Origin: an uncultured Christensenella sp.
Lineage (GTDB): Bacteria; Bacillota; Clostridia; Christensenellales; UBA1242
DNA: 32,000 nucleotides
Assembly (NCBI GenBank): GCA_949841595.1
Contig: CATKZB010000011.1
Coordinates: 1 to 32,000 of the forward strand
Direction: 5' to 3'
The position numbers and the translations under genes were made by a program. The notes below the pieces were generated by a model, which did not search any database, had not been told where the DNA came from, and saw only the letters and a list, made by a program, of their open reading frames with translations. The first letter of the stretch is position 1. Each line of letters begins with the position of its first letter. Shown here in pieces: positions 2,393 through 8,719 of this stretch.

Positions 2393-3604
2393 TTGTTTAA
2401 TCGGCCAGAAGTGTTTGCATCCAAGTGGAGCAATCGAGTGCTTAAGGCAAAGGAAATCTTGTCTTTTCCAAGTTCTCTTGCAGAATTGGAAGAATATGGT
2501 CATCTTGACAACCAATGCGAAATGCTTTGGAAGTTTACCCACAAGGAGGATGACCACAATTTTAAATACCAGGAGTCGAGAAGAGTGTTTGAAGAAGCAT
2601 TTACATTTGAAAAATTATTAGCTGCTCACAAAAAGTGTAGATGTTCTAAACAACACAAGCGAGCTACGATTTCCTTTGAAATAAATTTGGCAACAAATCT
2701 TTCCAGCATTTCTCAAAAAATTCTTTCTGAGAAGTTTAAATTGAGTGAATATCGAGTTTTCAAGATTTATGAACCCAAAGAGAGATTGATTGAAGCTTTG
2801 CCATATAATGACAGAGTGGTTTTGATGGCATTTTGCACAAACATCATTGAGCCAAAACTCGAAAAAAATTTGATTTATGACAATGTGGCTTGCAGAAAGG
2901 GGAAGGGCACATTGTTTGGTATCAAAAGACTACACAAGTTTTTGCATAACTTTTATCACAAATTTGGCGAAGATGGTTATTTTTTGAAATGCGATGTGAG
3001 AAAATATTTTCAAAGCATAAATCACGAGATTTTGCTTAAGAATTTGCATAAAACGGCTTTGGATGCAGAAGATTTGAAGTTTGTTGTAATCATTTTAAAC
3101 AGCAAAAACAGCGAAAGTGGAGTGGGACTTCCAATTGGAAACCAAACAAGCCAGTGGTTTGGACTTTTTTATTTAAACAAAATTGATCGACTTGTTAAAG
3201 AAACTTTGGGTGTGAAATATTATGTCAGATATATGGATGATATGATTTTGGTGCATCATGACAAAGAGTTTTTGAAGTTTTGCAAAGAACAAATTGAAAA
3301 GTGTGCAAATGAACAACTGAAGCTTCAACTCAACAGCAAAACTCAGATTGGCAAACTTTCAAATGGCATAGACTTTCTGGGTTTCAGACACATTCTAAGT
3401 AAAAATGGTAAGGTGCTATGTTTTTTGAGAGGTCATGGCAAACGGCGACTTACAAAAAACATGAGAAGTTTGCATAAACTGGAAACTGCTGGGCTTATTG
3501 ATGAAGAATATAAAGCTGTAAGGCTGAATGCCTATCAAGCACATTTAAAGCATTCTCATTCAAAAAAGTTGTATCTGAATTTGAAATCGAAATACAAATT
3601 ATAA
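2393..3604 (+). CDS. DGR reverse transcriptase (ORF opens at TTG 2393; the first ATG at 2522 is the more likely start)
   Basis: YEPKERLIEALPYNDRVV, FLKCDVRKYF, GLPIGNQTSQWF (IGNQTSQ at 3134-3154), YMDD (3230-3241), GIDFLGFR. No maturase or endonuclease domains. Confidence 0.88.
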   Translation: MFNRPEVFASKWSNRVLKAKEILSFPSSLAELEEYGHLDNQCEMLWKFTHKEDDHNFKYQESRRVFEEAFTFEKLLAAHKKCRCSKQHKRATISFEINLATNLSSISQKILSEKFKLSEYRVFKIYEPKERLIEALPYNDRVVLMAFCTNIIEPKLEKNLIYDNVACRKGKGTLFGIKRLHKFLHNFYHKFGEDGYFLKCDVRKYFQSINHEILLKNLHKTALDAEDLKFVVIILNSKNSESGVGLPIGNQTSQWFGLFYLNKIDRLVKETLGVKYYVRYMDDMILVHHDKEFLKFCKEQIEKCANEQLKLQLNSKTQIGKLSNGIDFLGFRHILSKNGKVLCFLRGHGKRRLTKNMRSLHKLETAGLIDEEYKAVRLNAYQAHLKHSHSKKLYLNLKSKYKL

Positions 3605-3667: not shown

Positions 3668-3696
3668 TTGAAAATAAGTTGTTTTTGTGATAGAAT
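3668..3696 (+). promoter_or_regulatory. Promoter of the DGR target operon
   Basis: TTGAAA (3668-3673), 17-nt spacer, TGaTAGAAT (3688-3696). Confidence 0.55.
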
Positions 3697-3739
3697 ATTT
3701 TTATAAATGCAAACATGCAAAAGAAAAAGGAGAAATATT

Positions 3740-5830
3740 ATGGCAATAAAAGTCCTTCCTATTGAAATTGGAAATACAGATGAAAATCAAGAAATGGGAA
3801 ACAAAAAATTCAACACAACAGATGCTGTGATTTTGGATTCTTATGATGATGTTAAAAATATCAACTCAAATTATAGAAAACGAAAAGCGACAGATTATGC
3901 AGTTATGAACGGCTGTTGTCTTGGGAGAAGCAATTCGAATGCCTATTATTGGCTGCGCTCTGCTGTCTCTCTGGGCTATGTATTCTGTGTAAGCTTTGAC
4001 GGCGACCTTTACGTCTACTATTCTTCCATCATCACTGATTTAGGCCTGCGTCCAGCTTTGCACCTTGATCTTAAATCTTTTATCTCCACGCGAAGCGTGT
4101 CGGGCACGGTGCATTATGATCCAAATGATAATTTATATAAAGTGCAAATGGGAGAATTCCCTCAAACTTATGTTAAAGACTCAGAAAAACTTGAAAGATT
4201 ATTCAAAAATGGCAGTTTGAGAAAAACTGGAAATACATACACTGGTTATATGAAAGACGATGGCAGTTTTGCTCAACATGAAGAATTTGTGTATAATGGT
4301 CAAAAATATGCCAGAGTCATTGTCAAAAAAGCTGATAGTGACAGCAAATTTAAGGATGGAACACTAGAGCCAGAAACTGGATCTGTGTGTTGGGCAAAGG
4401 TTGAACCAATATCTTTCAAAATAAGAAATTGGGATGATTTGCCAAAAGAAATCAATCCGAATGGAACTGGAAAAGCCAAATTTGTGAAGGTTGAAGCAGA
4501 AGATGCGATTTTGAGTGGGCTTCCTTTCTATCCAGAAAATGGACAAACAGAGCACACAATGTGGCAAAACAGTCTCGTTCGTGCTTATTTGAACGGATAT
4601 AATTTACATAAAGAAATTGACAAAGGAAACGGAAACAAAAAATTTAAAGCCTCCAGAAACTTTGATTTTGAAGGCAAGGGTTTCTTATACGAAGCAGGCA
4701 TAACTGCAGAAATGATTGCAAGTGCAACTGTGGAAGAAGATGAGATGACTGACAAAAAGGTCAATCCGAATCCATATGGTTTTTCTTTTGACGAACTTGA
4801 CAACGATCAACTTTTGAAACTTTATGTTGGTGCAAATGCATCAATCTTTTTGCATGGACCTTCTGGAGTTGGAAAGTCAGGGAGAGTGAAACAACTTGAT
4901 CCTACAGCAACAAGAATCACATTAAGACCTCAAATGAACCCAGAAGAAGTTGACGGAACTCTTGACAGAGAAACAGGAAAATTTGTTCCACCACTTTGGT
5001 ACACTCAACTTTGTGAAAAATGTCAACAAGAGCCAAACAGAAAACATGTGCTTTTTATTGACGAACTTACAAACGTGAAACCTACAGTGCAAAGTTTGAT
5101 CTATTCGATTGTTTTGGACAGAGCAGGAAAAGACGGACTTTGGCCATTGCCTGAAAATGCTGTTGTGGTTGCTGCTGGAAATGAAAATGAAGACAATTTG
5201 GCAGCTTATCCTCTTACAAATGCGTTGTTCAGAAGATTTAGTCACATTTATTATAAGGTTGATAAGTCAAGTTGGCTGGATTGGGCAACTGGCGTGTCAA
5301 AGATTCATACTCAAGTTTGTGAAACAAAAGAAACAGAACCAAGAGCAAGAATTCATCCTGCAATTGTTTCTTATATTATGAGCAGAGATGAAAACGTGCT
5401 TAATCAAGATTTGGATGAAGAAAATCCACAAATTGTTACAGACCCTCGTAAGTGGGAAATTGCAAGCAACGTGCTTTATTCAACGAAAAATCCTCGTGCA
5501 CTTCTTCCTGCAATAGGGGAAAATTTAACAGAAGATTTTGTTGATTTTGTTCAAAGCATTCATGTCAGTGTGGAAGATGTTTTGAAGGGAAATTTTGACA
5601 AACGAGATTTTCTTGAAATGAACATTAGCCAAAAATATTCTTCTTTGTTGGGACTTATTTCTGCAAAGGAAGAAGAACTTCCAAAAGTGCGAGGATTCAT
5701 TTCTGACACTTTGGGCAAAGAGCTTTTGGCTTCTTATGACAGTATTTGGGTGAGAAATGATCCTGAAAGAGCACAAATAATTGCTGAAACCAAGCTTATG
5801 ATGAAGGAGGACAAAGATGTTGTTAAATAG
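3740..5830 (+). CDS. DGR target protein: N-terminal C-type-lectin-like variable domain fused to a MoxR-like AAA+ ATPase
   Basis: The ORF track starts at 3707, but AGGAG lies 7 nt before ATG 3740. YYWLRS...GLRPALHLDL is the typical VR-encoded CLec end. Walker A GPSGVGKS (4856-4879), Walker B LFIDE (5051-5065), VVAAGNE...ALFRRF. No signal peptide or TM segment seen. Confidence 0.8.
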   Translation: MAIKVLPIEIGNTDENQEMGNKKFNTTDAVILDSYDDVKNINSNYRKRKATDYAVMNGCCLGRSNSNAYYWLRSAVSLGYVFCVSFDGDLYVYYSSIITDLGLRPALHLDLKSFISTRSVSGTVHYDPNDNLYKVQMGEFPQTYVKDSEKLERLFKNGSLRKTGNTYTGYMKDDGSFAQHEEFVYNGQKYARVIVKKADSDSKFKDGTLEPETGSVCWAKVEPISFKIRNWDDLPKEINPNGTGKAKFVKVEAEDAILSGLPFYPENGQTEHTMWQNSLVRAYLNGYNLHKEIDKGNGNKKFKASRNFDFEGKGFLYEAGITAEMIASATVEEDEMTDKKVNPNPYGFSFDELDNDQLLKLYVGANASIFLHGPSGVGKSGRVKQLDPTATRITLRPQMNPEEVDGTLDRETGKFVPPLWYTQLCEKCQQEPNRKHVLFIDELTNVKPTVQSLIYSIVLDRAGKDGLWPLPENAVVVAAGNENEDNLAAYPLTNALFRRFSHIYYKVDKSSWLDWATGVSKIHTQVCETKETEPRARIHPAIVSYIMSRDENVLNQDLDEENPQIVTDPRKWEIASNVLYSTKNPRALLPAIGENLTEDFVDFVQSIHVSVEDVLKGNFDKRDFLEMNISQKYSSLLGLISAKEEELPKVRGFISDTLGKELLASYDSIWVRNDPERAQIIAETKLMMKEDKDVVK
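3949..4061 (+). repeat. DGR variable repeat (VR)
   Basis: 113 nt aligned to TR by hand. About 24 substitutions fall at TR adenines, 3 do not, and VR has one extra codon. It encodes WLRSAVSLGYVFCVSFDGDLYVYYSSIITDLGLRPAL. Confidence 0.85.
4086..4110 (+). promoter_or_regulatory. GC-rich hairpin about 25 nt downstream of VR (candidate DGR target-recognition structure)
   Basis: ccacgc-gaa-gcgtg (4087-4099), with the alternative cgtg-tcggg-cacg (4096-4108). It is a conspicuous GC island inside an AT-rich gene and is absent downstream of TR. Confidence 0.45.
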
Positions 5831-6200
5831 TAAAGAAATTATTGAGTTATCAAAAATATCACCAGTTCTTGTGGTTGGTGCAAAAACTGAAGATTTTAAA
5901 AATGCCACTGTTTTGAAGGCAAATATACCTTCAAAAAGTTTGGGAGTGGTGAACACTGCAACAGGAATTAAGACTCCTCTTTGGCTTTTTCAAATTTTGA
6001 AGGGTGATGCAAGTCATCAGATTGTTATCGAAGAAATTGATAGCATTGATGCTTATTCTCAAGAAAAATTTTATGAACTTTTGAAATATAAAACAATAAG
6101 CAATATTGATTTGCCAGAAGATTGCAACATCATTGTGACTGCAAAAAAATTGGAAAATGTTTCTGCAAATATCGCTTGTTTATGTCAAATTGTGAAATAA
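5817..6200 (+). CDS. Small hypothetical protein, translationally coupled to the target gene; possibly a degenerate AAA-like domain without a P-loop
   Basis: ATG overlaps the end of the upstream gene by 14 nt, with AAGGAGG 6 nt upstream. IVIEEIDSIDAYSQEKFYELLKYKTISNIDLPEDCNIIVTAK resembles the Walker B to sensor-1 region. No GxxGxGK motif. Confidence 0.6.
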   Translation: MLLNSKEIIELSKISPVLVVGAKTEDFKNATVLKANIPSKSLGVVNTATGIKTPLWLFQILKGDASHQIVIEEIDSIDAYSQEKFYELLKYKTISNIDLPEDCNIIVTAKKLENVSANIACLCQIVK

Positions 6201-6210
6201 GAGGTGATTT

Positions 6211-7617
6211 ATGGCAGATTTTGATTTGGCAACCTTAAAAAGAAAGATGCTCAGAAAATACCCTGCTTTTGGGGCTGAAATTAATGATGTTAATTACAAA
6301 GTTTTTGAAAATGGTAAAGAAGTTTCAACAGCTTGCACTGATGGGAAAACTATTTATATCAATCAAGGATTTATGGAAAAAATGTCAGAAGAAGAACAAG
6401 TGTTTATTCTTGCTCATGAAGTGAGTCATATTGCACTTAATCATATAATGAGATGTAAAGATAAGGATATGAAACTTTGGAATATTGCAACGGATGCTGT
6501 TATCAATCAATATCTGAAGCAAGATGGTTTGCCTATGCCTGAAGGTGCGATTGATTTTGAAAATGAAAATCATTTTGATGCAGAAGAAGTCTATGAAAAA
6601 TTGTTGGAAGAAAAACAAAAGAAAGAAGAACAATCAAAACAGCAACAACAAAACGGACAAGAGCAACAATCTGGTCAAGAACAAAATGAGCAATCACAAA
6701 ATCAACAAACCAGTTCTGAAGAAAGTGAGAATGGAAATTCTCAACAAGAAAATAAAGAAGAAAACTCTCAAGAGCAAGACGAAGATATGCAAATGGGACA
6801 TGATGACCACTCTATGTGGAAAAAAGCAGTTGAAGAAGCTGAAAAAGAGAAGGAAAAGCATTCTAAAGAAAAAGGTGAGTCACAAGAAAAGAAAGATGAA
6901 CCAGAGGAAAAGATTGTTAGTGAAAAAGACTTTTTCAAGAAAAACGAAGAAGAAAAAGTTAGAATTGCTGAAGAGATTATGAAAAATTTGAGCAGTGAAA
7001 GACGGGGCAATGGTGGAGAAACTCAACTTGTGGAGTTTTCTGATATCGGGGATGCTGGAAAGCCTGTTGTGAATTGGAAAAGAATGCTTATCAGAAATCT
7101 TGAACTTGAAGATGAAGCTTGGGGACATAAGTTTTCTGACAAATCTAATAATTATGCTTCCAGAATTGAAGATGTTGAATATGATGAAAAAGCTGAGACT
7201 GAAATTATTTTGGACACTAGTGGTTCGGTGAGTGTGAATCTTCTTAAGAATTTTTTAAGACAAGTTAAAACTATACTTAAAAATTCAACTATAAAAGTGG
7301 GGACCTTTTCTGATGATTTTTATGGTTGGACGGAAATAAAAAGGGAAGCTGATATTGACAGTTTAAGGCTTTATGTTGGTGGTGGAACAAATTTTGATGC
7401 AGCAAGCAGAGCATTTTCAAAACGAAAAGATGTCAACAAAATTTGTTTTACTGATGGTCAAGATGGTGGAAATGCTGAAATTAGAGAACCAAGGAAAGAT
7501 ATCACATGGATAAGTTTTGAAAATCCAAATTTCAAACCAGATAATGGAAAAGTTATGTTTGTTCCAGAAAATTTGATAAATATGGAAATGGAAAAAAGTG
7601 ATGGGAATGTCAAATAA
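6211..7617 (+). CDS. vWA-domain protein with N-terminal HExxH metallopeptidase-like domain (DUF2201-like MoxR partner)
   Basis: ILAHEVSHIALNH (HEVSH at 6415-6429), WNIATDAVINQYL. A Q/E/K-rich linker of about 120 aa. MIDAS-like LDTSGSV (7213-7227). RBS AGAGGTG. Confidence 0.75.
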   Translation: MADFDLATLKRKMLRKYPAFGAEINDVNYKVFENGKEVSTACTDGKTIYINQGFMEKMSEEEQVFILAHEVSHIALNHIMRCKDKDMKLWNIATDAVINQYLKQDGLPMPEGAIDFENENHFDAEEVYEKLLEEKQKKEEQSKQQQQNGQEQQSGQEQNEQSQNQQTSSEESENGNSQQENKEENSQEQDEDMQMGHDDHSMWKKAVEEAEKEKEKHSKEKGESQEKKDEPEEKIVSEKDFFKKNEEEKVRIAEEIMKNLSSERRGNGGETQLVEFSDIGDAGKPVVNWKRMLIRNLELEDEAWGHKFSDKSNNYASRIEDVEYDEKAETEIILDTSGSVSVNLLKNFLRQVKTILKNSTIKVGTFSDDFYGWTEIKREADIDSLRLYVGGGTNFDAASRAFSKRKDVNKICFTDGQDGGNAEIREPRKDITWISFENPNFKPDNGKVMFVPENLINMEMEKSDGNVK

Positions 7618-7620
7618 AAA

Positions 7621-7646
7621 GAAGACCTAAAAATGGTCTTTTTTTG
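7621..7646 (+). terminator. Intrinsic terminator ending the target operon
   Basis: aagacc-taaaaat-ggtctt followed by T-run. Confidence 0.7.
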
Positions 7647-7711
7647 GTTTGCCTATTGCAAAGACAAGTGAAATGTGTTATTATGCATATAAGAAATTTT
7701 GAAGGTGTGAT

Positions 7712-8719
7712 ATGATTACTGAAAGTTTGAAGAGAAAAATTTTAAGCAAAGATTTTGCAGAAAGATTGAATGAAATTTGTCTGGAATCAAATAGTTTTGA
7801 ATTTTATAAAGAATTGAAAGCTGACTTGCCATTTCTTGACAAGTTTGTCAGAAATATGAAAAAAGATTGCAAAATGATTAATGTTTTTTCTAAAAGCAGG
7901 AGTTTGGAAGAAATGAACTTTCATGCTATGAAATTTTATGAAAATTTGGATGCTGAAATTTATGATCGATTGAAATTCTTATTGTATGACAAATCCACAC
8001 AAGTTTCTGTTTGTGATCCTGTTGAAAAATTTGTTTCTTCTTCTGCCTCACTTTTTGAAACTAATAAGAATGGTATGAGAATTGTTTCTTTGCATCCCAA
8101 AATGGATTTTGAAGGTCTCTTTTGTTATGTGCATGAATATGCACACCTGATGTGTGAGGATTTTGTTAATTTTAAAATGAATAACTTTGAAAACAACATT
8201 TCTGAAGTTCCTAGTCTTTGCATGGAAAAGGTTTATGCAAATTGGCTTGTTAAAAATGGGATTATCAGTATTGATGAATATAATTGCTTTAAACTTAGAG
8301 AAATAACTACCTTTGTTAGTTTTGTTGGAAAATTGTTTTTGGATGCGACGTTTTTTGAAATGGTAAAACCTCCAGTTACAGAACAAAAATTGCTTATGGT
8401 TGAATATATTTTTAATAATCATCCGATATTGAAAGATAATTATGAAGAGTTTTTGTTGAGACTTAATGAAATTGTGACAGAAAATAAACCTACCACTTAT
8501 ATTTTTAGATATGTTGTTGGAGAACTAGTGGGGGGGGTGTTTTTGGATGACTTCAAAAAGGATAGCGTTTCTGCAGTAGAAAGATATAAAAAATTGATTA
8601 AAAATATAGACAAGTTGAAATCTGATGAGGCTGTTGAAACTCTTATTGGAAAAGATTATAAAAAACGAATTGAAAAGAAATATTTAAATTCAAAGTTATC
8701 AAGAAATAAAGCTGATTAA
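7712..8719 (+). CDS. HExxH protein, possible short M3-like metallopeptidase
   Basis: YVHEYAHLM (HEYAH at 8132-8146), with a downstream ISEVPSLCMEK that resembles the M3 third-ligand region. Contains a G8 tract at 8530-8537. Confidence 0.45.
   Translation: MITESLKRKILSKDFAERLNEICLESNSFEFYKELKADLPFLDKFVRNMKKDCKMINVFSKSRSLEEMNFHAMKFYENLDAEIYDRLKFLLYDKSTQVSVCDPVEKFVSSSASLFETNKNGMRIVSLHPKMDFEGLFCYVHEYAHLMCEDFVNFKMNNFENNISEVPSLCMEKVYANWLVKNGIISIDEYNCFKLREITTFVSFVGKLFLDATFFEMVKPPVTEQKLLMVEYIFNNHPILKDNYEEFLLRLNEIVTENKPTTYIFRYVVGELVGGVFLDDFKKDSVSAVERYKKLIKNIDKLKSDEAVETLIGKDYKKRIEKKYLNSKLSRNKAD

Follow-up and report, generated by a model that had tools for sequence, protein, structure and literature searches.

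What does a protein do that carries a retroelement-diversified, lectin-like domain at one end and an ATPase at the other, and with which partners does it act? The question is raised by a locus in the first 32,000 nucleotides (nt) of contig CATKZB010000011.1 (assembly GCA_949841595.1) of an uncultured Christensenella sp., a stretch hereafter called the window, in which the target gene of a diversity-generating retroelement (DGR) is followed by a small open reading frame (ORF) of 127 amino acids (aa) and by a gene of the DUF2201 type. Intracellular sensors that are diversified by DGRs and coupled to NTPases have been proposed to be immune-like, mainly in multicellular bacteria and without biochemical proof. 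We regard the identity of the three parts of this trio as secure: a predicted MoxR-type ATPase fused to the variable domain, a predicted dead paralogue of its core, and a putative peptidase carrying a vWA-like domain. A mechanism leading from sensor to protease has moderate support by analogy with solved machines, and an immune role is put forward as a hypothesis.

All three genes and the features described with them lie on the plus strand. The target gene (3707-5830) encodes 707 aa, arranged from the N-terminus as a DUF6273/C-type-lectin-like domain, a beta-rich middle, a MoxR-type AAA_5 domain and a helical C-terminal region. Its stop codon TAG (5828-5830) lies within a 14-nt overlap with the small ORF (5817-6200), whose ATG at 5817 is preceded at a distance of 6 nt by a Shine-Dalgarno sequence, AAGGAGG (5804-5810), read directly from the sequence and situated inside the target coding sequence. 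The stop codon of the small ORF (6198-6200) is followed by a spacer of 10 nt, GAGGTGATTT, and then by the ATG of the DUF2201 gene (6211-7617, 468 aa). A scan of the plus strand found no terminator-like site between the three genes, and the end of the unit is marked at 7622-7647 by a terminator-like hairpin with a T-tract, recognised by pattern only: stems of 6 bp (AAGACC and GGTCTT) enclose a loop of 7 nt at 7622-7640, and a T-run follows directly 3'. The terminator scan itself placed this hairpin on the minus strand, and the orientation of the T-tract was read from the plus strand. A preliminary description of the window had named the overlap, the AAGGAGG inside the target, the gap between 6200 and 6211 and a closing terminator, all of which were recovered. 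Judged by its junctions, the trio is a predicted single unit with coupled translation.

Upstream of the target, a consensus scan alone yielded a promoter-like site (TTGAAA-17-TAGAAT with TG, 3668-3696; 10/12 matches), which is no proof of function. Because all three proteins proved free of hydrophobic segments by a simple heuristic, they are predicted to be cytoplasmic. The 335-aa ORF that comes next (7712-8719) was considered as a further member of the unit and ruled out, since the terminator-like hairpin precedes it and no homologue stands beside the trio elsewhere; it bears a HEYAH motif and found no match in Pfam, NCBIfam, PADLOC or PHROGs.

By sequence, the ATPase half of the target is recognised with varying clarity. 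Its AAA_5 match (aa 380-511) is marginal, with E=6.3e-5 and 23.4 bits against a cut-off of 22, no NCBIfam match was found, and the sole match of its profile to the PDB, 2r44, is weak (E=8.5e-4); aa 368-691, however, align over the full length of phrog_1297, labelled 'ATPase' (E=8.2e-38). The residues of the active site are in place: in the Walker A motif GPSGVGKS (aa 384-391, 4856-4879) G387, G389 and K390 are invariant in 36 homologues, and at least 90% of these keep the Walker B pair D452-E453 (5060-5065), the sensor-1 asparagine N492 (5180-5182) and R510 (5234-5236). For the AlphaFold2 (AF2) model of the target, with a predicted local distance difference test (pLDDT) of 80.8, the top 17 Foldseek matches were NorQ, CbbQ2, RavA and CHU_0153, all MoxR-family ATPases, and BchI was also among the structural matches. 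A MIDAS (metal-ion-dependent adhesion site)-bearing vWA partner is encoded alongside. The name MoxR, under which the protein had been introduced, is thus upheld by structure and only marginally by sequence. Taking motifs and model together, the C-terminal half of the target is best read as an intact MoxR-type AAA+ ATPase, for which ring formation and ATP hydrolysis are predicted.

The small ORF is by no means a chance ORF or a gene fragment, both of which are ruled out by its conservation and its confident fold. A word-indexed search yielded 23 homologues with 54-98% identity, all 125-129 aa long, and an exhaustive profile search of 1.8 billion representative proteins expanded the family to 211 representatives, nearly all of them standalone proteins of 115-140 aa. 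No match was obtained in NCBIfam, PADLOC or PHROGs, the profile met PDB sequences at chance level only, and Pfam gave nothing for the family except sub-threshold Sigma54_activ_2 matches in 7 of 24 members. The AF2 model (pLDDT 92.3, predicted template modelling score 0.86) has significant Foldseek matches in the PDB that are without exception AAA+ alpha/beta cores (dynein, Lon, MCM, NtrC, CbbQ, NorQ), and matches in BFVD to phage AAA_5, gp24-like and MoxR-like ATPases; all matches with E<1e-3 are AAA+ modules, with TMq up to 0.73. The small-ORF profile was aligned by hhalign to the AAA region of the large protein with 97.8% probability (E=1.1e-12), aa 30-111 pairing with target aa 403-493, and tblastn linked target aa 412-514 to the small ORF of another locus, L020 (E=5.6e-5). 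On the strength of these two links, the small protein is identified at the profile level as paralogous to the ATPase core of the target itself; a direct BLASTP comparison of the two gave no match, the homology being visible with profiles and in the one tblastn match to a divergent orthologue.

What this paralogue has lost is equally consistent. Across 152 sequences no Walker A motif (GxxxxGK[ST]) occurs, aa 21-30 have no conserved G or K, and a loop of 10 residues occupies the site expected for the P-loop helix in the AF2 model. The acidic pair of Walker B is not conserved in these sequences (position 72 is D, E or N, position 73 is N, G or D), and neither an arginine finger nor a sensor-1 Asn is conserved among them; in the model, the chain ends after beta-5 at aa 126 and has no C-terminal helical lid. 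The earlier characterisation of the protein as P-loop-less and AAA-like was therefore sustained by fold, by homologues and by the hhalign link, whereas of its 'IEEID' pattern only the letters stand: as a conserved Walker B it fails, since D75 alone is kept. Retained, on the other hand, are the helix-2-insert hairpin and a helix-3 signature, Q-x-K-F...K. The hairpin ends in the motif P54-x-W56 (5976-5984; P54 in 134 and W56 in 143 of the 152), which hhalign pairs with PPLW of the target (aa 428-431; PPLWY in the alignment). Since P-loop, acidic pair, arginine finger, sensor-1 Asn and lid are all missing, the 127-aa protein is, as far as sequence and model allow, a catalytically dead AAA+ core. 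The family was also met in another form: along a 2270-aa protein, P0149, there are 21 separate stretches that align with positions 13-47 of the small-ORF profile, and the protein appears, from these matches, to be a repeat protein built from that segment.

In the third protein, Pfam detected DUF2201_N (E=1.3e-30, 107.4 bits, cut-off 23.2) and DUF2201 (E=3.2e-10, 40.6 bits, cut-off 26.4), in this order from the N-terminus and both over the gathering score, an arrangement of the COG3864 type. It matches phrog_1314 (E=6.6e-61) and, weakly, the minigluzincin MJ1213 in the PDB (E=4e-4). Its HExxH motif, HEVSH (H69, E70, H73; 6415-6429), is kept in 20 of 21 orthologues along with H78 and D95. The MIDAS is composed of the DxSxS core DTSGS (D335, S337, S339; 7213-7227), found in all 21, of T393 (7387-7389), found in 19, and of D415 (7453-7455), found in 20. 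Between the two domains extends a linker of 133 aa, rich in E, K and Q and with a net charge of -16. The preliminary description had placed HEVSH correctly and had recognised a metallopeptidase and vWA protein of the DUF2201 type, which the profile searches corroborate; it had quoted 'LDTSGSV' for 7213-7227, where the motif is right and the coordinates cover only the five residues of the core instead of the seven quoted. Conserved motifs and profiles identify the partner as a putative zincin-like HExxH peptidase joined to a vWA-like domain with a complete MIDAS.

The three genes belong together beyond this genome. Two outcomes had been named in advance as refuting the interpretation, the lack of a conserved neighbourhood in other genomes and the lack of significant vWA and metallopeptidase profile matches, and neither came about: the profile matches are significant, and the trio was recovered in tightly coupled form, both with and without a DGR, in about 25 loci from GTDB representative genomes and metagenome contigs. 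According to the source titles, these are metagenome-assembled genomes (MAGs) from the gut of humans, mice and ruminants, assigned to uncultured Clostridia, Eubacteriales, Christensenella, Bacilli and Tenericutes. As a rule the ATPase gene comes first, followed by the small ORF and DUF2201; in one clade (L001-3, L010, L014) the small ORF precedes the ATPase gene, and DUF2201 again comes last. In nearly all loci, adjoining genes of the trio either overlap by 1-32 nt or leave 5-12 nt between them; in most loci neither overlap nor gap between ATPase gene and small ORF exceeds 12 nt, and 5-11 nt separate the small ORF from the DUF2201 gene. Neighbours differ in every locus, with no conserved client gene alongside. 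Relatives of the ATPase may carry other N-termini, as in a tandem AAA_5-AAA_5 form and a WG-repeat form, and the tandem form of L018 is still accompanied by the small ORF and the DUF2201 gene. In the literature on DUF2201, DUF6273 and COG3864 no description of the trio was found.

Several of these loci have peculiarities of their own. L021 (8067-17529) contains four copies of the sensor-ATPase gene, 98-100% identical to one another and with identical variable repeat, one of them 5' of the single small ORF and DUF2201 gene and three in tandem 3' with a period of 1967 nt, which represent either a recent amplification or an assembly artefact. In L029 (12599-16144) DGR and trio are followed by genes for a phage-type integrase, a MobL relaxase and an HTH_17 protein, and by its gene content the module of this genome may ride on a mobilisable element. 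The DUF2201 gene of L030 (9161-16148) is broken after about 140 aa by an insertion with a serine recombinase, helix-turn-helix (HTH) regulators, an SMC-like gene and RecT. In L007/L009 (6050-7780) the DUF2201 gene after the small ORF is broken up into ORFs of 102 and 337 aa, no ATPase gene lies nearby, and this copy is probably decaying.

The retroelement itself lies directly 5' of the target in the window. A gene for the DGR accessory protein Avd (1607-2119, 170 aa; NCBIfam DivGenRetAVD E=3.2e-8, Pfam bAvd E=0.0025, both matches under the curated cut-offs) is followed by the template repeat (TR, 2266-2375), defined by its alignment to the variable repeat, and by a gene for a reverse transcriptase (RT, 2393-3604, 403 aa; Pfam RVT_1 E=3e-16, PADLOC RT E=1.7e-33). 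The variable repeat (VR, 3949-4061) delimited by the same alignment encodes aa 81-119 of the target and falls within aa 15-121, the stretch that matches DUF6273 (E=4.5e-7, 30.3 bits, with the cut-off at 23.5). TR and VR differ by 25 mismatches, 23 of which are located at adenines of the TR (A>T 12, A>C 6, A>G 5), and by one indel of 3 nt. An RT with Avd, an adenine-specific pair of repeats and a VR inside a match that is C-type-lectin-like at the profile level are the attributes of a DGR, and the domain that had been described as DGR-diversified has indeed proved to be so. The DUF6273 profile aligns only from its position 59 on, at the extreme N-terminus of the target (3749-4069, aa 15-121); an invariant motif, WQNSxxRxxLNG (4562-4597, aa 286-297), follows some 170 residues later, after a beta-rich insert.

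Diversification seems not to be a thing of the past. In proteins that share 90% or more identity with the target, differences cluster at aa 41-120 and aa 361-707 are nearly invariant; because natural variants differ mainly in the former segment, with the ATPase half almost constant, the data fit ongoing diversification of the target in natural populations. Avd, TR and RT are likewise found directly upstream in L012, L020-L024 and L028-L029, which together with the window amount to about half of the loci; Avd homologues lie 5' of the RT in the same eight loci, adenine-specific TR/VR pairs were confirmed in L012 and L022-L024, and L006 and L011 show partial RT matches.

Further upstream, the window contains a tRNA-Leu(CAA) at 306-391, whose last 21 nt, together with the 33 nt downstream of them (371-424), are duplicated at 1478-1531, just upstream of avd (54 nt, 89% identity). 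Between the two copies lies an ORF for a lipoprotein-like protein of 200 aa with a Big_3 match (704-1306). The repeat resembles the att-type duplication that an integrating element leaves behind.

How might such parts work together? The steps proposed here are modelled on solved MoxR-vWA machines, namely NorQD, CbbQO, CobST and the I/D pair of Mg-chelatase. In NorQD a finger of the NorD vWA domain enters the pore of the MoxR ring, where it is held by helix-2 inserts, and ATP hydrolysis rotates the vWA domain relative to the domain at NorD's N-terminus and stretches the linker; the authors expect the same mode for AAA+/vWA pairs generally (PMC13036017). By analogy, the target ATPase would form a ring on which the vWA domain of the partner docks, inserting into the pore a finger that the helix-2 inserts touch. 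Through AAA-AAA contacts the dead paralogue would join this ring and act like the ATPase-dead AAA+ domain of ChlD/BchD, either breaking the symmetry of the ring or regulating the ring. ATP hydrolysis would then twist the vWA domain against the N-terminal zincin, with the linker stretched and the peptidase switched on or exposed, an outcome that could be expected because the partner has the layout of NorD with a zincin as its N-terminal domain. The input that licenses the ATP-driven step would be a ligand at the hypervariable lectin tip, presumably a fast-evolving intracellular one, such as a phage protein. In short, the trio would be an immune-like (conflict) sensor-effector, in which binding at the lectin tip leads to ATPase-driven switching of a vWA-tethered zincin, and we consider the chances of this reading to be about evenly balanced. 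That recognition by the VR sets off ATPase-driven activation of the vWA-peptidase had been proposed in the preliminary description, and analogy with NorQD makes it plausible; the description included neither the homology with the gp24/gp25 pair of phage N4 nor the absence of VMAP, a component of the published DGR-linked ternary systems. The most specific form of the reading is clearly more speculative and in our view rather doubtful: that unicellular, small-genome Firmicutes and Tenericutes of the gut possess an antigen receptor, cytoplasmic and diversified by a retroelement, that is fused directly to a MoxR motor, and that this motor, with the P-loop-less paralogue serving for symmetry breaking or gating, mechanically activates the vWA-tethered zincin.

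A number of points weigh against the sensor-effector reading. In classic DGR targets the VR is located at the C-terminus and an N-terminal variable domain is unusual; the VR of the present target lies in its N-terminal part, and the lectin-like fold around it may, from the way the profile aligns, be permuted or interrupted. No RT was found in the fetched flanks of L001-5, L010, L014, L017, L019 and L025, and since these account for about half of the loci, the module can do without hypermutation; most proteins of the RT-less loci retain the lectin-like domain. PADLOC returned no defence-family match for any of the three proteins, and the closest named relatives are gp24 and gp25 of phage N4, which are set among replication genes. 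The solved MoxR-vWA machines are, to our knowledge, maturation chaperones and no protease switches.

The role of the small protein can be seen differently within the same framework. Instead of a working subunit it might be an inhibitor or cap, located at a protomer position or on the face of the ring, that keeps the ATPase off until the sensor is engaged, which is a possible arrangement though not the one we would expect. Such a protein, having no arginine finger, would cripple the neighbouring ATP site, and the hairpin motif that it retains is the one contacting the vWA finger in NorQ, so that it could compete for the partner; yet tight translational coupling and strict co-occurrence with both partners suit an obligate subunit equally well.

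Instead of being a switch, the whole trio might be a programmable AAA+ protease, in which the lectin domain selects a substrate that the ring remodels and passes to the tethered zincin, as in FtsH or Lon. The identical list of parts fits this scheme, and so does the fusion of the binding domain to the motor itself, where published systems have it on the vWA protein; the fold of the small ORF, moreover, also matches AAA+ modules of Lon. MoxR-family rings, however, are not known to thread substrates, the pore of NorQD is filled by the vWA finger, and the peptidase would be on a separate chain joined only via the vWA domain, so that we consider a threading protease unlikely.

Phages provide the closest named relatives of the ATPase/DUF2201 pair. 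A tblastn search showed the DUF2201 protein to have homologues in 303 phage records; for the ATPase half the figure is 550. The two genes are direct neighbours in an N4-like Acinetobacter phage and in a Klebsiella jumbo phage, where they lie beside genes for helicase, polymerase or thymidylate synthase and are annotated as homologues of N4 YP_950502 and YP_950503; a roseophage paper lists N4 gp24 as an AAA ATPase and gp25 as vWFA, with function unknown (PMC2784036). Both proteins being homologous by sequence and their genes adjacent in the same order, the ATPase/DUF2201 pair of the trio is, on comparative grounds, a homologue of the gp24/gp25 pair. Phage and trio ATPases also share the Walker B/helix-3 signature FLDEITNAP..Q..YQLVLDR, whereas the phage ATPases are only 340-445 aa long and have no lectin domain, DGR or dead AAA paralogue. 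A 135-aa gene (gp60) between the ATPase and DUF2201 genes of the N4-like phage XC38 was compared as a counterpart of the small ORF and is unrelated, and no small standalone match to the small ORF was found in BFVD. In phrog_1314 and in the RefSeq phage records NC_055823, NC_019526 and NC_027399 the DUF2201-type vWA-metallopeptidase family is labelled 'HNH endonuclease', which looks like a propagated misannotation.

The trio could on this basis be regarded as a phage-derived module, a domesticated or mobile relative of gp24/gp25 that serves a mobile element in replication, host takeover or superinfection exclusion. Matches to phrog_1297 and phrog_1314, the many phage records with the pair beside helicase and polymerase genes, the tRNA-Leu with its att-like repeat beside the locus in the window, relaxase and integrase in L029 and a terminase nearby in L004 are in keeping with such an origin. 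Identity to the phage proteins, however, amounts to only 25-31%, the phage pairs are without lectin domain and small dead paralogue, and several loci occur in a plain chromosomal context, which makes service to a mobile element improbable as an explanation of the trio. The weakest rival, a housekeeping chaperone that matures or metallates a client as NorQD, CbbQO and CobST do, with the lectin domain as adaptor and the DGR as a secondary acquisition, can claim that the closest solved structures are maturation chaperones and that many loci stand without DGR amid housekeeping genes (L001, for instance, between nifU and ruvX), but it has little likelihood, because no conserved client gene accompanies the trio and the neighbours vary by locus, known maturation pairs have no conserved HExxH peptidase, sustained diversification by the DGR argues for a changing ligand, and the trio occurs only patchily, its copies in L007 and L030 being decayed or interrupted.

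If the most specific form of the sensor-effector reading is true, an adaptive-like system would exist beyond the multicellular bacteria from which such systems have been reported, and a first functional handle would be gained on the widespread and unexplained gp24/gp25 pair of phage N4, the trio linking a cellular system to a pair of genes present in hundreds of phage genomes. The trio is compact, consisting of three small soluble proteins with one VR, and it is common in gut MAGs. With the variable domain placed on the motor, input (ligand), transducer (ATPase and dead paralogue) and output (zincin) should be easily separable in vitro. In addition, the trio contributes a clear case of a standalone pseudo-ATPase paralogue that would partner a MoxR ring.

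Among known systems, NorQ/NorD and CbbQ/CbbO contain the solved structures closest to the ATPase half of the target, and their partner proteins have the same layout as the DUF2201 protein, with N-terminal domain, linker and vWA domain. They differ in that these partners carry no peptidase motif and serve defined enzymes as clients (cNOR and Rubisco), and in that their ATPase has no sensor domain and a dead paralogue is lacking. Such a paralogue is found in Mg-chelatase, where ChlD starts with an ATPase-inactive AAA+ paralogue of ChlI, continues with an acidic linker and then a MIDAS domain, and makes contact with ChlI via the AAA+ domains (PMC6604950). Common to ChlI/ChlD (BchI/BchD) and the trio are an active AAA+ motor and its inactive AAA+ paralogue, along with an acidic linker and with a vWA/integrin-I domain that bears a MIDAS. 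In ChlD, however, dead AAA+ domain, linker and vWA domain form one chain, whereas in the trio the dead core is a separate, lid-less protein of 127 aa and the chain with linker and vWA domain bears a zincin; a client like ChlH is absent, and the likeness is one of architectural analogy and not of membership. Because the trio has the ingredients of ChlI/ChlD, only split differently, a regulatory role is suggested for the small protein, which would either enter the ring or cap it.

The third comparison is with the ternary vWA-MoxR-VMAP conflict systems, as defined by Kaur et al. 2020 (PMC7159879) and Dore et al. 2024 (PMC10907252), where DGR-diversified lectin domains in MoxR-vWA-peptidase systems were proposed as sensors of invaders. 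What these systems share with the trio is the set of MoxR-type ATPase, vWA protein and peptidase, together with a C-type-lectin-like domain that a DGR diversifies and that is proposed as sensor, and the targets are predicted to be cytoplasmic there as they are here. Their lectin domain, however, is located at the C-terminus of the vWA protein, in the trio at the N-terminus of the ATPase; their peptidase, in most cases a trypsin or caspase, belongs to a separate VMAP protein, in the trio it is a zincin fused to the vWA protein; and where they have VMAP as third component, the trio has the dead AAA+ core. They are enriched in multicellular cyanobacteria, actinobacteria and Chromatiales, whereas the trio loci derive from MAGs of gut Clostridia, Bacilli and Tenericutes. 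Pfam, which includes VMAP models, gave no VMAP-type match in the three trio proteins or in 24 small-ORF homologues. Since VMAP is missing, the lectin domain sits on the ATPase and not on the vWA protein, the peptidase is a zincin and not a trypsin or caspase, and the hosts are others, the trio stands outside the VMAP ternary family, and we class it as a variant of the DGR-coupled MoxR-vWA conflict systems.

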